From Candidatus Terrybacteria bacterium RIFCSPHIGHO2_01_FULL_43_35 (lineage in GTDB: Bacteria; Patescibacteriota; Minisyncoccia; Terrybacterales; GWB1-40-14), in assembly GCA_001822815.1 (NCBI GenBank), contig MHSR01000008.1, positions 49,602 through 113,601 of the forward strand: a DNA stretch of 64,000 bases, written 5' to 3'. The position numbers and the translations under genes were made by a program. Below the pieces are notes generated by a model. It saw only the letters and a list, made by a program, of their open reading frames with translations. It searched no databases and was not told where the DNA came from. Positions 2,897-46,389 of the stretch are shown here, piece after piece. Within the stretch, counting starts at the first letter, position 1. Each line of letters opens with the position of its first letter.

Positions 2897-4762
2897 ATGA
2901 CTTTCAAAGAAATAAGAGAAAAATTTATAAAATTTTTTGAAAGGCATGGCCATACAGCTGTGCCATCTTCTTCTTTGATTCCCGACGATCCTTCGGTTTT
3001 ATTGACTACGGCAGGTATGCAGCAGTTTAAGCCCTATTGGGGGGAACTTGATCCGGAGCAAACTATACATCCCAGCATAGGCAAACCAGTTGGTAAAAAT
3101 GCCGTTTCTATACAGAAATCCTTTAGGACTTCGGATATAGATGAAGTGGGAGATGAAAGCCACCTTACTTTCTTTGAAATGATGGGCAATTTTAGCTTCG
3201 GCGGCTACTTTAAGAAAGAGGCTATTGCTTATGCGCATGAGTTTCTTACCAAAGAATTGGGTCTTAAAATTTCATATGTAACCGTATTTGAAGGAAATGA
3301 AGCTATGGGCGTTCCTGAAGATAAAGAGTCAGCTGCCATATGGAAAGAGCTTGATCCTGCTATAAGGATTGAAAAACAAGGCATGGAAAACGTTTTTTGG
3401 GGTCCTACAGGCGCTTCTGGTCCTTGTGGTCCCACCACGGAGGTTTATTTTAAAAATGCCCAGGGACAGGATATAGAAACGTGGAATTTAGTTTTTAACG
3501 AATATTTTTATCCTGGTTCACGCGAAGAATTATTAAACAGCGCGCCAGGAAAAAAGTTGGAAAAATTAAAAACACCAGGAGTTGATACGGGTATGGGGCT
3601 TGAACGGATAGCAATGATTGTTCAAGAAAAGAAAAATATTTTTGAAACTGATCTATTTGAACCTATATTAAGAGCCGTTATTGAAATTCAAGGAGATAAG
3701 CCAATTCAGCAGATTAGGTTAATCGCAGATCATTTGAGGGCAGTAACTTTTTTGATTGCCGATGGTCTTGAGCCAGGAATAGATGAGCGTAATTATATTC
3801 CGAGACGTTTAATACGAGATGCTATGACGGCTCATTATTTGTATATAGGGGCAGGTATAGATATCAATTTCTGTGTTGATCCTGTAAATACAATTATTGA
3901 TATATATAGAAAAGATTATCCGTATCTTTTAGAAAAGCGAGAAGAAATTATTTCGATAATACGAAAGGAGACAGAAAATTTTTCTAAGGTTTTAAAATTG
4001 GTTGGTAATGTTTTGGATCTAAAAAAACAATATATTAGTTTTAGTACAGAAAAGAAATGGCCCGAGGTTAGATCGGGAACAGATATAATTGATTTAGACG
4101 GCAAAATTTTATTCGATATACGTCAGTCTATAGGAGTAAGCTGGTCGCAAATGAAAATGGTTATAGAAAAAGAAGGATTTGAATTAGGCGATAAAGTGCT
4201 TACTGAATATGATGAGGCGTATAAAAAACACCAGGAATTGTCTCGTGCCGGTCAGGAAAGAAAATTCGGCGGACACGGGCTTCTTTTAGATACCGGCGAA
4301 CTCAAAGCCGCCAACGAGGAAGAGCTCAAAAAAGTTACCCGTCTTCATACCGCAACGCATATGCTCCAGGCGGCTTTGCGCCAGATTTTGGGTCAGGAGA
4401 TTTATCAGATGGGATCGGATATAACCGTTGAAAGACTTAGATTTGACTTCACTTTCTCAAGAAAAGTCACTCCCGAAGAATTATTACAAGTAGAATCTCT
4501 AGTGCGACGAAAGGTTAGTGAGAATTTGCCGGTTAACAAAACAGAAATGCCAATTGAAGATGCTAAAAATTCAGGAGCCCTTACTGTTGCAACAGCAAAA
4601 TATCCCCCGATGGTTAAAGTTTACTCTATAGATGATTTTTCAAGAGAAGTTTGCGGCGGACCCCATGTTTCCCGCACATCCGAAGTGGGTGAGTTCAAAA
4701 TAATTAAGGAAGAAGCTTCTTCAACCGGAATTCGCAGAATTAGAGCTGTAGTTTCGCCATAA
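2897..4762 (+). CDS. alaS: Alanyl-tRNA synthetase, short form (621 aa)
   Basis: AlaRS class-II N-terminus ('FKEIREKFIKFFERHGH...LLTTAGMQQFKPYW'). Editing-domain motifs 'HTATHML' (HxxxH) and 'CGGPHV' (CxxxH) are present. The C-terminal C-Ala domain appears absent. Confidence 0.85.
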   Translation: MTFKEIREKFIKFFERHGHTAVPSSSLIPDDPSVLLTTAGMQQFKPYWGELDPEQTIHPSIGKPVGKNAVSIQKSFRTSDIDEVGDESHLTFFEMMGNFSFGGYFKKEAIAYAHEFLTKELGLKISYVTVFEGNEAMGVPEDKESAAIWKELDPAIRIEKQGMENVFWGPTGASGPCGPTTEVYFKNAQGQDIETWNLVFNEYFYPGSREELLNSAPGKKLEKLKTPGVDTGMGLERIAMIVQEKKNIFETDLFEPILRAVIEIQGDKPIQQIRLIADHLRAVTFLIADGLEPGIDERNYIPRRLIRDAMTAHYLYIGAGIDINFCVDPVNTIIDIYRKDYPYLLEKREEIISIIRKETENFSKVLKLVGNVLDLKKQYISFSTEKKWPEVRSGTDIIDLDGKILFDIRQSIGVSWSQMKMVIEKEGFELGDKVLTEYDEAYKKHQELSRAGQERKFGGHGLLLDTGELKAANEEELKKVTRLHTATHMLQAALRQILGQEIYQMGSDITVERLRFDFTFSRKVTPEELLQVESLVRRKVSENLPVNKTEMPIEDAKNSGALTVATAKYPPMVKVYSIDDFSREVCGGPHVSRTSEVGEFKIIKEEASSTGIRRIRAVVSP

Positions 4763-7925: not shown

Positions 7926-8054
7926 CCCCGTTAGAAATTTACAGCAGTTATTTACTATTTATTGTAAGCTTTAGCCTTTGTAGCGTATGGCAATGGCGAG
8001 AAAAGGCAAAGGCCTTTTCTCATGGCTAAATATAGCCGTAAACTTCTAACGGGG
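7926..8054. repeat. MITE-like repeat, copy A (~129 bp) with ~19-bp terminal inverted repeats
   Basis: Left end 'ccccgttagaaatttacagcag', right end 'gccgtaaacttctaacgggg' (reverse-complement related). Near-identical to the copy at 13796..13923. Flanked on both sides by 'TTGAC'. Confidence 0.6.
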
Positions 8055-9535: not shown

Positions 9536-10165
9536 ATGATAGGCGCAAAATGTAAAATTTGCAGAAGGGCTGGTCAAAAATTGTTTTTGAAAGGGGACAG
9601 GTGTTTTAGTCCTAAGTGCGCTATAGTCAGAAGACCATATCCACCGGGGGTTCACGGGCAAAAATCACGGCCTTCCCGTTCCGAATTCGGACTACAGCTT
9701 GCGGAAAAGCGCAAGCTTGAAGCTTCTTATCATATCGATGAACGCGACTTAAAAAGGATAGTCAAAGAAGGCAGTAGCACGCGGCCTCAAAATTTGGATA
9801 TAGCCGATATGATAGTAAACCGTCTCGAATCTCGTTTAGATAACGTAATTTACAGATTAGGTTTTGTCGTATCAAGATCCGTTGCGAGACAGCTGGTTTC
9901 ACACGGCCATTTTTATATAAATGATCGGCGCATGGATATTCCTTCGTATTTACTTCGCATTGGTGATAAGGTTTCTATACGTCCGGCAAGTAAGGATAAG
10001 AGTCCGTTTAAAAATATGGCTTCGCATCTTGAAAAATACACCCCTCCTTCGTGGATTGAATTAGACAAACAAGAATTAAACGGGAAGGTTATTGGCGTTC
10101 CCAACCGTAGTGAAATTGGCTTGCCCGTGGATTTGAGCATGATTGTAGCTTATTATTCTCGTTAA
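9536..10165 (+). CDS. rpsD: 30S ribosomal protein S4
   Basis: 'KCKICRRAGQKLFLKGDRCFSPKCA' zinc-ribbon N-terminus and an S4 domain. Confidence 0.95.
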   Translation: MIGAKCKICRRAGQKLFLKGDRCFSPKCAIVRRPYPPGVHGQKSRPSRSEFGLQLAEKRKLEASYHIDERDLKRIVKEGSSTRPQNLDIADMIVNRLESRLDNVIYRLGFVVSRSVARQLVSHGHFYINDRRMDIPSYLLRIGDKVSIRPASKDKSPFKNMASHLEKYTPPSWIELDKQELNGKVIGVPNRSEIGLPVDLSMIVAYYSR

Positions 10166-13795: not shown

Positions 13796-13923
13796 CCCCG
13801 TTAGAAATTTACAGCAGTTATTTCATATTTGTTGTAAATCTAGGCCTTTGTGGCATATGCAACAGTGAGAAAAGGCCGTTGCCTTTTCTCACGGCTAGAT
13901 ATCACCGTAAACTTCTAACGGGG
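13796..13923. repeat. MITE-like repeat, copy B (~128 bp), same family as 7926..8054
   Basis: Ends 'ccccgttagaaatttacagcag' and 'cgtaaacttctaacgggg'; the interior is near-identical to copy A with a few substitutions. Flanked by 'cttg' on both sides and by a 14-bp direct repeat 'gccttaatttttaa' at 13767 and 13965. Confidence 0.6.
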
Positions 13924-22377: not shown

Positions 22378-22507
22378 TCCAGTTAGAAGTCTTCGGCATA
22401 AAAATTTATTAAATTTTTATGCGTAGAATTAGCGGGGAATTGTAAAAATAAAAGTCCGCCAAGCCTTAATTGCCACGCAATTATTGTTAATACAGACTTC
22501 TAACGGG

Positions 22508-23770: not shown

Positions 23771-23791
23771 AATCATTATTTTATATAATAT

Positions 23792-23936
23792 ATGCCAGGT
23801 AGTGAAAGTTCGACCGTTCTCCGAAGACGAACAACCGATTTCGTGATACTTGGCTCTACCATTAATTCGTTTAACATTAATCATTAACTAGAAATTCGGC
23901 AGCACATTATAAGTCGAACTTCTACTACCTGGTATG
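23792..23936 (+). promoter_or_regulatory. Structured ~145-nt element immediately upstream of, and overlapping, the mreB-paralog start codon (copy 1 of 2)
   Basis: 5' 'atgccaggtagtgaaag' pairs with 3' 'cttctactacctggtATG'. Inner stem is 'gttcgac/gtcgaac'. A related element lies at 25054..25217. Confidence 0.4.
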
Positions 23937-24989: not shown

Positions 24990-25053
24990 TTTTATGCACG
25001 TTTTTTAAACCAGACTTGCGTTTTGTCGTGTCAATCCTTACTTCTAGTGTGGT

Positions 25054-25217
25054 ATGCCAGGTAGTGAAAACGCGACCATTCGTTTCCGTCAGCTGACGGA
25101 GACGAATAAAAACCATCTGGCCACAATCACCGTCAGTATTAAAATTCAATACGTAATACTTAAGAATAGCGCAATTTTTATCGAAATAATGTAGTCGCAT
25201 TTCTACTACCTGGTATG
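25054..25217 (+). promoter_or_regulatory. Structured ~164-nt element immediately upstream of, and overlapping, the mreC start codon (copy 2 of 2)
   Basis: 5' 'atgccaggtagtgaaaa' pairs with 3' 'tttctactacctggtATG'. Inner stem 'gcgac/gtcgc' is compensatory relative to copy 1. Flanked by 'ggtatg' direct repeats. Confidence 0.4.
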
Positions 25218-28298: not shown

Positions 28299-28601
28299 TG
28301 ATTTGACAGATCTTTCTTCTAGAAATGACCTTTCCGTTTGTTATCAACTCTTGACACATTTCTTGGTTTAGATACTATTGAGTATTAAGACCGCGCATTA
28401 GCGCGGCATTAAATTTAAATTAAGTTTATCCCTCGCTTTCGCCAGAGTCTTAATGACGTATAAGGACATTCGGCGCGGCTCGTGGGTAATATAAAAGGTA
28501 ATCCTTCGCTTCGCTCAGGTCTTCGACTCTTAAAGAGTCTCAGACTCGAGGAGATGCACGTGGTTGTATCCTCTCGTGTGGCTCGAGGACAACCACGGCA
28601 C

Positions 28602-29075
28602 ATGCCATCAAATTATATTACTAAAGACGGTTTAGAAAAATTGAAGCAGGAGCTTGAGGAACTAAAGACAGTCAAGCGACTAGAAATAGCCGAGAAACTT
28701 CAGAGGTCTATTGCTTTTGGTGATTTGTCTGAAAATGCCGAATATCAGGAAGCTAAAGAAGAGCAGGCTTTTCTTGAAGGCCGCATTGATGAACTTGAGG
28801 CTGCTGTTGAATCAGCTGTCATCATTGAAACAAATCACAATAACGGTTCCAGAGTCGTCTCCATTGGTTCTAAAGTTGTTGTTGAACAAACAAACCCGCC
28901 CGGCCCAAAATCAACTTTCGTTATTGTGGGTTCAGAAGAAGCGTCACCGTCTGAAGGCCGGATCTCTAATGCTTCACCCATAGGCATGATGCTCTTGGGG
29001 CACGGAGTAGAAGAAACCGTTTCGGCCAGAACGCCGGCAGGCGTAAAACAGTATAGGATTGTAAGTATTGAATAA
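28602..29075 (+). CDS. greA: Transcription elongation factor GreA
   Basis: 'ITKDGLEKLKQELEELKTVKRLEIAEKLQRSIAFGDLSENAEYQEAKEEQAFLEGRIDELE' is canonical GreA. Listed ORF 28482 adds an implausible 40-aa N-terminal extension that reads through a GC-rich leader. Confidence 0.85.
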   Translation: MPSNYITKDGLEKLKQELEELKTVKRLEIAEKLQRSIAFGDLSENAEYQEAKEEQAFLEGRIDELEAAVESAVIIETNHNNGSRVVSIGSKVVVEQTNPPGPKSTFVIVGSEEASPSEGRISNASPIGMMLLGHGVEETVSARTPAGVKQYRIVSIE

Positions 29076-42562: not shown

Positions 42563-42725
42563 AACACTCAAAATTTGGTGTCTAAGGCTGCGGGGTCGTC
42601 TAATGGGCTCGAGACAACCGCTTGTCTCGAGCGGGCATTTTAGCAATTTGTCCTCAAATTGCGTTAAGGAATGCCCGGGCAAGACAGAGACTTTGAAGTT
42701 ACATTTAAAAATTTATAGCCAGCGC

Positions 42726-42796
42726 TGCGGGATCGTCTAATGGTAGGACATGAGCCTTTGAAGCTCAGTATCTTGGTTCGAATCCAAGTCCCGCAG
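42726..42796 (+). tRNA. tRNA-Gln (anticodon UUG)
   Basis: Hand-folded cloverleaf. Acceptor 'tgcggga/tcccgca' with a U1:A72 pair, as in bacterial tRNA-Gln. D-stem 'gtct/ggac'. Anticodon stem 'tgagc/gctca' with loop 'ctTTGaa'. T-stem 'cttgg/ccaag' with loop 'ttcgaat'. Discriminator G; no encoded CCA. Confidence 0.8.
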
Positions 42797-42893
42797 CGCT
42801 GGCTATAAAATATATTATTAGTTTTCGGATCCAAGCCCCGCAGTCACTTACATTTTTTATCGACCAATTGAAGACGCGTAATCCGATTGCTAA

Positions 42894-43556: not shown

Positions 43557-43979
43557 TTCTTCAGTCCTTTTTTCAAAGAATTATCGTACTGTTAGACAAT
43601 AACAGAACTTAGTGTAAGGATCAAGTGATTTATATTTCTGCAAGGGAATAGTCAGATGATGTCTTTTTGTATCTTATCTGCACTAAAAAAGCCACACAAG
43701 AAAGTATCATTTTTGCGGCACTTTTTGTTAGAATAAAATTGCTCGAGACACGTCGTTTGTGATAAGATTTAAATAGCTAAGAATCCTTACCGGGTTTGAC
43801 AGGTTGTCGGTTCTAGCTCGAGGACGCCAGCTGATAGAAAATCTTTCTCGCTCTTAGCGAGATTAGATTTTCATCATCCCGAGGATCCACGCGACGAGGG
43901 GCTACCATTCGTGATAGGCCATTCGGCTCTGAGAGCCTCAGACTCGATGAGTTATCCCGCTCGAGGTGCTTTAAGATTT

Positions 43980-44540
43980 ATGAAAAAAATAATAAGATGC
44001 CAGTGGGTTAGGAGTGGCGATTCCTTGATGGCAAAATACCACGATACAGAGTGGGGCGTGCCGATTAAGGATGATAATAAAATATTTGAATTCCTGGTAC
44101 TGGAGAGTTTTCAGGCCGGTTTAAGCTGGCGAACTATATTGAATAAGAGAGTAAATTTTGAGAAGGCCTTTGCCAGATTTAATCCAAAAAAAGTTGTGGC
44201 GTTCACCGCGCACGACAAAGCCCGTCTTATGAAGAATAAAGGGATTGTCCGCAACCGGGCTAAAATTGAAGCGGCCATCAATAATGCCACCAAGTTTCTG
44301 GAGATCCAAAAGGAATTCGGAACATTCTCAAAATACATGTGGGACTTTGTTGGTGGAAAGCCGATAGTCCATACAATAAAGAAAATGGACGAGTACCCAA
44401 CATCAATCTCCGAAGCGGAAGTGTGGGCAAAAGATTTAAAGAAAAGGGGATTTAAGTTTTTGGGGCCTACCACGCTCTATGCCCACATGCAGGCCGTTGG
44501 GATGGTCAATGACCACATGGTCAGGTGTTTTAAGAGATAA
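43980..44540 (+). CDS. tag: DNA-3-methyladenine glycosylase I
   Basis: 'CQWVRSGDSLMAKYHDTEWGVPIKDDNKIFEFLVLESFQAGLSWRTILNKR' is the canonical Tag start (HhH-GPD with a Zn site). Listed ORF 43911 reads through the GC-rich leader. Confidence 0.85.
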   Translation: MKKIIRCQWVRSGDSLMAKYHDTEWGVPIKDDNKIFEFLVLESFQAGLSWRTILNKRVNFEKAFARFNPKKVVAFTAHDKARLMKNKGIVRNRAKIEAAINNATKFLEIQKEFGTFSKYMWDFVGGKPIVHTIKKMDEYPTSISEAEVWAKDLKKRGFKFLGPTTLYAHMQAVGMVNDHMVRCFKR

Positions 44541-44676
44541 TAGATCTGCGGATGGTTCTAGCCCGAGGTGGTCTGTAATACAGAACACGGTCTGCCCGAC
44601 TACGAAGCATAAAGTCGAAGGGGGTTTCGTGATACAATGAGGTCATGCGACGGCTCGCTTTTTCATTAGAGGCTTC

Positions 44677-44880
44677 ATGGAAGAGCTTATTGAAGACGGC
44701 AAAACGGGTTTTGTTTTAGAGAGTAATATTGATGCCCTGATTGGTGCCATGCAGAAGATTGATACAATTGATAGATCTCAAGTCCGCAGGCCTGTTGAGC
44801 AGAAGTTTAGTAAAGAGAGAATGACCGATGAATATGAGAAATTATATTACGAATTATGCCAAAACGGAGCTCAAAAATAG
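44677..44880 (+). pseudogene. Remnant: C-terminal ~65 aa of a GT4 glycosyltransferase
   Basis: 'EELIEDGKTGFVLESNIDAL...' is the GT4 E..G..G C-terminal motif; no N-terminal domain is encoded upstream. Confidence 0.45.
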
Positions 44881-46019: not shown

Positions 46020-46180
46020 ACAAAATGCGTATTGCCACAATGGTTACGGGTCATTACACCACTCCACCGCCTTTCGGCGTGATCTATGCCCTTTATGGAT
46101 ATTGCGATTGAAGTAAGTGAAGGTTTGGCCACGCGTGGACACGAAATAACTTTTTTGGGCCGATAGGCCTCGCAACTTAA
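46020..46180 (+). pseudogene. Frameshifted N-terminal fragment of a GT4/GT5-type glycosyltransferase
   Basis: 'MNKMRIATMVTGHYTTPPPFGVIYA' then a frameshift. The next frame reads 'DIAIEVSEGLATRGHEITFLGR*'. This is a typical GT-B N-terminus broken in two. Confidence 0.4.
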
Positions 46181-46389
46181 AGGAGTACATGTAGAATCTG
46201 GCGGTTTGGTGCCCCTACGCAATGACGGCGAATTGCCTATACTAAAAAGCGATAAAGCCGGACCGATTGAGCGCGACAAGATATTCACTTTATGGGATCA
46301 ATATCTGCTTGGACTAGCCTATAAAGGGGCTGCCGAAGGCAGGTTTGATATATATTTTGCCCGATAGCGATACTGGTTACTACTGGACG

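Follow-up and report, generated by a model that had tools for sequence, protein, structure and literature searches.

Two diverged copies of a small palindromic module, probably a selfish insertion, in the greA and tag leaders of a Candidatus Terrybacteria genome

Bacteria of the candidate phyla radiation (CPR; Patescibacteria) are genome-reduced and are usually considered poor in mobile DNA. Among described repeat systems, the closest analogue in behaviour to the element reported here is the Rickettsia palindromic elements (RPEs), for which we know of no mobilising enzyme; REP sequences and derivatives of IS200/IS605 are closer in size and anatomy. RPEs occur in intergenic DNA and also as in-frame insertions in protein genes that are unrelated and often essential, where they add a conserved peptide (PMC10969869, section 4.2). 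Here we analyse a 64,000-nt stretch of DNA (the window) from contig MHSR01000008.1 of Candidatus Terrybacteria bacterium RIFCSPHIGHO2_01_FULL_43_35, a member of the Parcubacteria (CPR/Patescibacteria) whose genome has a GC content of ~42%. In this window the leaders of greA and of tag, which encodes DNA-3-methyladenine glycosylase I, share a pair of motifs for which a first-pass annotation had offered three roles: a common operator, a shared structured 5' untranslated region (UTR), or a dispersed family of small repeats. Our analysis favours the last of these and neither of the other two. The shared sequences are probably two diverged copies of a selfish 33-34 nt palindromic insertion module, and not an operator linking greA and tag.

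Like RPEs, the module is palindromic, resides in the reduced genomes of host-dependent bacteria and is found in intergenic DNA and as in-frame insertions. RPEs, however, are ~100-150 bp long and confined to Rickettsia, whereas the module is 33 nt long and occurs in many classes of Patescibacteria and in a Chloroflexota-like organism; unlike RPEs, it has a defined NAG^G insertion point (the caret marks the junction) and nests within itself, and it shares no sequence similarity with them. REP and REPIN sequences are dispersed, non-coding imperfect palindromes of 20-40 nt that are free of target-site duplications and often lie in composite repeat clusters, and the module, itself a short (33-34 nt) dispersed imperfect palindrome, resembles them in this respect. 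REPs are extragenic, species-specific and high in copy number, with a conserved GT[AG]G head that is recognised by a cognate RAYT, a Y1 transposase of the HUH class. In contrast, copies of the module occur inside genes, start with GTC[A/G] and not GTAG or GTGG, are near-identical over distant lineages and number two in 64 kb. Single-strand transposition of the HUH/Y1 type, as in the IS200/IS605 and REP/RAYT systems, inserts DNA 3' of a short target without duplicating it. Like IS200/IS605 elements and their miniature derivatives (PATEs), the module lies immediately 3' of a short, defined sequence (NAG^G, seen in four host contexts), lacks a duplication and involves a DNA hairpin, but those elements carry two different subterminal hairpins and show a strong lagging-strand bias, whereas the module is one 33-nt hairpin with no significant strand bias. 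It is also small and non-autonomous with inverted-repeat arms, as are classical MITEs (miniature transposable elements with inverted repeats), which are, however, typically 50-500 bp long, derived from insertion sequences (IS) and equipped with terminal inverted repeats and target-site duplications; the module is shorter, makes no duplication and has no known parent IS. Bacterial MITEs such as Correia, ERIC and Chunjie are sometimes co-transcribed, altering 5' UTRs or making fusions (PMC10969869). TIGR arrays of CPR bacteria and phages are tandem repeat-spacer arrays beside a tas gene (PMC12045711), and TIGR-Tas guide arrays, with box C/D-like motifs, have been reported in parasitic bacteria and phages; we rejected this assignment because TIGRs are tandem arrays next to tas genes, and copies of the module are single and dispersed. 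The module fails a defining feature of each family compared.

The two leaders do share the motif pair described in the first-pass annotation, CTCAGACTCGAKGAG followed by GCTCGAGG, the latter beginning 21 nt 5' of the ATG (28581 to 28602 for greA, and 43959 to 43980 for tag). The genes and all leader features described below lie on the forward strand. The first box, a 15-mer, reads CTCAGACTCGAGGAG at 28539-28553 in the greA leader and CTCAGACTCGATGAG at 43937-43951 in the tag leader, and no further match with fewer than three mismatches was present in the window. Since the 15-mer lies 63 nt 5' of the ATG in greA and 43 nt in tag, the shared bases fall in different reading frames, and the conservation is at the nucleotide level, as had been proposed. 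The best local alignment of the leaders spanned 32-38 nt (AGGTC-TTCGACTCTTAAAGAGTCTCAGACTCGAGGAG against AGGCCATTCGGCTCT--GAGAGCCTCAGACTCGATGAG) and scored 33, compared with 16.3 +/- 2.3 for shuffled sequences, with none of 1000 shuffles scoring as high; a small hairpin within it carries a compensatory change (GACTC/GAGTC against GGCTC/GAGCC). The individual words did not reach significance. The octamer GCTCGAGG occurs at 28581, 43816 and 43959 (3 observed against 0.99 expected; 10 of 100 shuffles reach 3), and neither CTCGAG (10 observed against 7.6 expected) nor CATTCGGC (4 against 2.7) was significantly enriched in the window. The word CATTCGGC was indeed found in both leaders, at 28467 and 43920. 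It is the 5'-arm word of the module family (RTTCGRC), and at 43920 it lies inside the module and at 28467 inside a decayed related unit (compare L050; such L-numbers label loci from other genomes).

The 15-mer is the 3' arm of a hairpin module of 33-34 nt with the consensus GTCRTTCGACTCTGAGAGTCTCAGACTCGAWGA and the conserved block GTCRTTCGA-CTCTGAGAGTC-TCAGACTCGA-WGAG. A hidden Markov model of the family (nhmmer) detected exactly two full copies in the 64 kb, at 28518-28555 (E = 3.5e-10) and 43916-43953 (E = 1e-12). Taking the nhmmer match together with the alignment to the tag copy and the family logo, we place copy 1, GTCTTCGACTCTTAAAGAGTCTCAGACTCGAGGA(G), at 28519-28553 in the greA leader, directly 3' of CAG (28516-28518); it is a diverged variant with the loop TTAAAG in place of TGAG. 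Copy 2, GCCATTCGGCTCTGAGAGCCTCAGACTCGATGA, spans 33 nt at 43918-43950 in the tag leader, as delimited by the nhmmer match and by an empty site in L172, and its insertion point is TAG^G of a host element. The first box of each leader (28539-28553 and 43937-43951) is the 3' arm of the respective copy.

The module is present in >170 public loci. A metagenome scan with the hairpin and the 15-mer core yielded at least 119 loci, compared with a chance expectation of ~10-20 (a hand estimate assuming ~500 Gb of sequence), and one 34-nt block was common to nearly all of the matches. A scan of reference genomes, one per species over 185,579 species, matched at 57 loci, and some genomes held as many as 5 copies; 45 of the 57 were in records named Patescibacteria, and the other 12 were in metagenome-assembled genomes (MAGs) labelled merely 'bacterium'. 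Patescibacterial carriers include Saccharibacteria, Nomura-, Wolfe-, Curtiss-, Doudna-, Niyogi- and Staskawiczbacteria, Paceibacteria and Parcubacteria. Many copies lie on GC-rich contigs from one groundwater sample, and one such contig encodes pyruvate dehydrogenase and Lar proteins whose best named relatives are from Dehalococcoidia/Chloroflexota. The module is therefore not strictly limited to the CPR, at least one Chloroflexota-like organism being a carrier. There were no matches in viral contigs (IMG/VR), and a viral origin was rejected on this ground. Searches of Rfam 15 in gathering and E-value modes returned tRNA alone for the window and 20 carrier loci, and we came upon no description of the family in the searchable literature, queried by DNA strings, encoded peptides and topic. 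The strings CUGA...GAUGAG...CGAA had suggested a hammerhead or other self-cleaving ribozyme; this was discarded, as the core spacing does not fit by eye and Rfam gave no ribozyme match.

Empty and filled versions of homologous sites were found in four independent host contexts. The first is a multi-copy element of ~110 nt, which reads ...GAGAACTTCAG^GATTTTTTAAGCTTC... when empty (seven loci) and ...CTTCAG^GTCGTTCGACTCTGAGAGTCTCAGACTCGAAGA^GATTTTTT... when filled. The second is the TCTAACAG repeat, whose empty form TCTAACAG^GGTGAAC gains 33 nt at that site, and the third is a type-B element (described below), empty in L157 and filled in L185. The fourth is the tag leader itself. The empty counterpart, TCGTGATAGGCTATCCCGCTCGAGGAGC, is in L172 (Parcubacteria RIFCSPLOWO2_01_FULL_48_18), and deletion of the 33 nt at 43918-43950 from the window gives 26/28 identity across the junction. 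The gap placed here by MAFFT was ambiguous because the host sequence TCGTGATAG resembles the module end TCGATGAG, and scoring the match once with these 33 nt kept and once with them removed settled its position. In all pairs the filled site is longer by exactly the insert, 33 nt (34 in one), which follows NAG directly and precedes G; the target is not duplicated, the ambiguity is at most 1 nt, and the flank logo has cAG immediately 5' of the insert in 65-76%. Copies are also nested within TTCGACARG^CTCAGG hairpin loops and within other copies of the module (L059, L075, L117, L172 and L194), and the module is often at the apex of larger covarying hairpin elements. In a test for complementary flanks the mean longest stem was 5.1 bp against 4.6 bp, a weak excess over controls that are confounded by shared host types.

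The position of the module relative to genes was equally permissive. Orientation with respect to flanking genes was unbiased, with 26 copies pointing the same way as both neighbours, 21 pointing against both, and 15 in convergent and 12 in divergent settings, and the distance to the next co-directional start codon varied from 29 to 929 nt. The public loci thus show none of the positional preference relative to start codons that a leader-associated motif had been expected to have. About 30 copies lie inside long open reading frames (ORFs), and in-frame copies were found in LepA, ValRS, IleRS, PurL, GyrB, DnaG, GlmS and ArgRS. The LepA copy falls in a region that is a 16-residue insertion relative to PDB entry 2ywe in an otherwise collinear alignment, and in the comparison of GlmS with 3ooj the insert-containing region is unaligned between two matched stretches. 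With its length of 11 codons, the module can be read through in four of the six frames (SFDSESLRLDE, RSTLRVSDSM, LIESETLRVER and SSSLRLSESND). It is a discrete, dispensable, site-preferring insert that tolerates any genomic context, including coding sequence, and it is one of a family of small hairpin repeats, nested in one another, that many Patescibacteria carry.

Such a distribution could also arise if the hairpin were functional and not merely selfish, serving to bind a protein that CPR and Chloroflexota have in common, or as a signal for RNA stability or processing, that has been copied into many transcripts and is tolerated or used where it landed. The extreme conservation of 34 nt over distant lineages, the frequent apex position in larger covarying hairpins and the retention in essential genes are in keeping with this idea. 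Both orientations of the module are, however, equally common, which makes a strand-specific RNA signal unlikely; presence and absence at homologous sites indicate that the hairpin is dispensable, its copy number in the window is low (2 per 64 kb), and it has no known partner protein. We consider a functional hairpin of this kind unlikely.

Comparison with related genomes indicated how copy 1 is placed. The greA leader of the window is identical in ten contigs of the same species, whereas the motifs are absent from the syntenic PBP2-greA-aspS loci of relatives (GreA identity 73-79%), where the leader measures 113, 166, 419 or 498 nt. In the shortest of these leaders a promoter, a small hairpin and an AT-rich spacer are followed by the ATG (promoter-hairpin-CATTAATTAAATAAAT-ATG in L020), an arrangement that looks like the ancestral form. 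The window retains a promoter-like site (TTGACA-16-TACTAT, 28351-28378, from a consensus scan), a hairpin at 28391-28406 equivalent to that of the relatives and the AT-rich spacer, and then has ~172 additional bases. From their sequence, the promoter and hairpin at 28351-28406 look like the ancestral, presumably transcribed, part of the leader, which would place the lineage-specific block at 28430-28601, between the AT-rich spacer and the greA ATG, within the 5' UTR. The block is made up of decayed units of the CCTTCG...CTCAG type (28430-28452, 28467-28486 and 28503-28518), module copy 1 and a terminal hairpin. Two of these, at 28430-28452 and 28503-28518, are CCTTCG-N-CTCAG units and account for the internal duplication that the first-pass annotation had noticed in this leader; the unit TTCGCTTCGCTCAG of the block recurs in other CPR loci.

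Copy 2 interrupts a different host. The tag leader contains a conserved element, here called element X, that extends over 43809-43917 and resumes at 43951-43968 beyond the module, and that includes the third GCTCGAGG at 43816. Element X is identical to L117 over 30/30 nt and shows collinear similarity to L172 and L117, which read GACCGGAG at the position of 43816. In one relative, tag starts 8 nt 3' of tRNA-Gln, and the motif was not found anywhere in the loci of relatives, 214 kb in all. The motifs are thus missing from the greA and tag leaders of relatives, contrary to what conserved regulation of the two genes would lead one to expect.

The second box does not belong to the module. Judged from the sequence, the tag octamer (43959-43966) is host flank, and the greA octamer (28581-28588) closes a separate hairpin. 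In the RNA fold it forms the 3' arm (GAGGA) and the loop end of the hairpin TCCTC-TCGTGTGGCTC-GAGGA at 28569-28589, which is nested in a longer hairpin (28556-28599) ending 2 nt 5' of the ATG, and its loop, TCG....GCTC, is similar to the common host loop TTCGACAAGCTCA. Around the tag octamer, TATCCCGCTCGAGG is kept in L172, which has no module at this site. The box-to-box spacing is 27 nt in greA and 8 nt in tag, and the sequences between octamer and ATG are unrelated (ACAACCACGGCAC against TGCTTTAAGATTT); the equal 21-nt distance is therefore best read as coincidental. Kinship to the motif had also been proposed for a palindrome at 42607 and a copy at 43806. We rejected this for the 42607 palindrome and the 43816 box because their homologues in L117, L155 and L172 do not conserve CTCGAG, other letters standing in its place; at the 42607 palindrome these homologues have CCAGAGACAACTGCTTGTCTCTGG and CCAAAGACGACTGCTCGTCTTTGG, with covariation in the stem.

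These observations bear on whether a regulator binds CTCAGACTCGAKGAG and/or GCTCGAGG in both leaders and so couples greA and tag expression. The two boxes do occur in the same order in both genes, with the octamer exactly 21 nt from each ATG. A common operator is nevertheless extremely improbable: the orthologous leaders have no motifs, the 34-nt block is found in >170 loci in any orientation or at any distance and also inside coding regions, the box spacing differs, and the palindrome spacing changes from 6-3-6 to 6-1-6 between the copies, unlike that of a dimeric operator. In addition, the octamer alone is not over-represented, and in L172 the tag octamer is present without the 15-mer, ~135 nt from the next gene, which is a gene other than tag. 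Because the module is scattered across many CPR bacteria, even within essential genes, it is not a control site linking greA and tag.

We also considered a shared cis-acting RNA structure in the 5' UTR (a riboswitch, a protein-binding leader or a translational hairpin) that regulates both mRNAs. The greA leader does fold stably (28510-28604, -40.4 kcal/mol, z = -4.2 against shuffles), the inner hairpin has the one compensatory change, and both copies are in the sense orientation 3' of promoter-like sequence. The tag leader segment, however, folds no better than its shuffles (z = 0.16), the outer helices differ between the two copies, and no Rfam family matches. With no preference of the family for orientation or position relative to genes, and with orthologous leaders devoid of the motif, a shared regulatory RNA appears very unlikely.

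Insertion of the module also bears on the annotation of both genes. The greA coding sequence runs from 28602 to 29075 and that of tag from 43980 to 44540. Homologues of GreA are 157-158 aa long (the nearest named one, from Parcubacteria GW2011_GWA2_40_8, is 78% identical) and those of Tag are 186-187 aa, and the window proteins begin as they do when translated from 28602 and 43980. Because both N-termini match those of homologues of ordinary size, the longer ORFs called at 28482 and 43911 reach too far into the leader, as the first-pass annotation had argued, and so does the public gene call P0001 (171 aa), which starts at a GTG at 28560 within the greA leader hairpin. In the tag leader, an ATG at 43947, contributed by the module 3' arm CGATGAG, is in frame and would lengthen Tag by 11 residues (MSYPARGALRF...). 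The repeats thus seed wrong start-codon calls, at GTG 28560 for greA and ATG 43947 for tag.

The selfish module would have reached its present positions by two separate insertions, one copy entering the repeat-rich block of the greA 5' UTR and the other the unrelated conserved element of the tag 5' UTR. Its spread would be that of selfish DNA, the moving form probably being a single-stranded hairpin on which an enzyme encoded by the host or by another element acts in trans. An HUH/Y1 transposase of the IS200/IS605-REP kind is our leading guess for the mobilising activity, because such transposition likewise places DNA 3' of a short target and leaves no duplication. Both window copies sit downstream of promoter-like sequence, and any effect on the expression of greA or tag would be incidental, through the stable hairpins added to the 5' UTR.

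Several points weigh against a selfish, mobile module. No mobilising enzyme or transposase was identified, and no search aimed at a RAYT or Y1 transposase was made. The near-invariance of 34 nt over distant lineages is compatible with horizontal spread but also with a function tied to the sequence, for example that of a hairpin bound by a protein. Both window copies are in the sense orientation in 5' UTRs with the octamer 21 nt from the ATG, so that local exaptation is conceivable (n = 2). Recent movement finds no support in polymorphism at strain level, as the greA copy is present in ten of ten same-species contigs; for the tag locus, look-ups using different start codons found no same-species contigs on record. 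Finally, orientation relative to GC skew (42 against 28, p = 0.12) was not significantly biased, and IS200/IS605 elements are strongly strand-biased.

A bolder form of the selfish-module explanation, which we put forward tentatively and hold to be possible but doubtful, is that the module is a site-specific mobile DNA not described before and, at 33 nt, exceptionally small. It would consist of one hairpin that enters 3' of NAG, duplicates nothing, targets the loops of other repeats and of itself, has settled in frame in essential genes of Patescibacteria and of a Chloroflexota lineage, and is mobilised in trans by an HUH-type or new enzyme. If so, it would be a CPR counterpart of the RPEs with a tractable insertion rule, and its presence in both CPR and Chloroflexota would mark gene flow between them or common ancestry.

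Other repeats are found in the neighbourhood. A second family, of ~130-165 nt with ~20-nt terminal inverted repeats (TATG-CCAGGTAGTGAAAGTTCGAC...GTCGAACTTCTACTACCTGG-TATG), is represented in the window at 22378-22507 (before proS), 23791-23933 (before mreB) and 25053-25214 (before mreC). These elements end exactly at start codons, and in relatives proS, mreB and mreC abut without them. Elsewhere, elements of this family precede greA (L011-L016, ~9867-10000; L024, ~3445-3580), with an empty site at the greA start in L020; in these relatives the element at the greA start codon occupies the same spot as the insertion block of the window. Insertions flush with the ATG look targeted. A 129-nt repeat at 7926-8054 and 13796-13923 (83-84% identity) is bounded by CCCCGTTAGAAATTTACAG ... 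GTAAACTTCTAACGGGG, and its word TTCTAACGGGG recurs in other MAGs, where the 33-nt module uses it for insertion (TCTAACAG^G).

The tRNA-Gln locus (42564-42845) is rearranged, with a 5' tRNA fragment and copied upstream region at 42564-42606 and a 3' fragment (GGATCCAAGCCCCGCAGTCA) at ~42826-42845. The interval between the fragments holds a complete tRNA-Gln(TTG) (42726-42797) and a structured, conserved element (42607-42690), which adjoins tRNA genes, with stem covariation, in L117 and L155 as well. A direct repeat, GGTTCTAGCTCGAGG (43809-43823) and GGTTCTAGCCCGAGG (44554-44568), brackets tag and its leader, and related GTTCTAG[AC]CCG[AG]AG words occur in L117, L155 and L172; this repeat may represent another family or mark the ends of a cassette. 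Two long 'intergenic' stretches, 44541-44855 and 46020-46318, resemble coding remnants (for example, a glycosyltransferase-like C-terminus ending at 44855) and are probably pseudogene fragments.

Other CPR genomes contain multi-copy elements of ~110-170 nt with long outer stems that differ among copies and yet remain complementary. Type A was found at L029, L033, L079, L082, L091, L111, L137, L167, L188, L190, L191 and L197, and type B at L150, L170, L178, L185, L192, L195 and L196. Their conserved cores read GGGGTTTCGAG-hairpin-GAGAACTTCAG-G-ATTTTTTAAGCTTCAAAAAAT-CCGTACC or AGGTGTAGTTTTT...AAAAACTATACC. Neither type matched Rfam; both may be structured RNAs, or else hairpin repeats that form a further level of nesting.

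For the organism studied here, these results remove a false regulatory tie between greA and tag and correct two over-extended gene calls. The NAG^G rule and the many pairs of empty and filled sites make the mechanism of mobilisation experimentally approachable, and the peptides encoded by the four open frames of the module can serve to flag annotation artefacts and insertions in CPR proteins. More broadly, CPR genomes carry a web of tiny nested palindromic inserts that alter 5' UTRs, other repeats and even essential proteins, with a gain of 11-16 residues in LepA, several aminoacyl-tRNA synthetases, GlmS, GyrB and DnaG.

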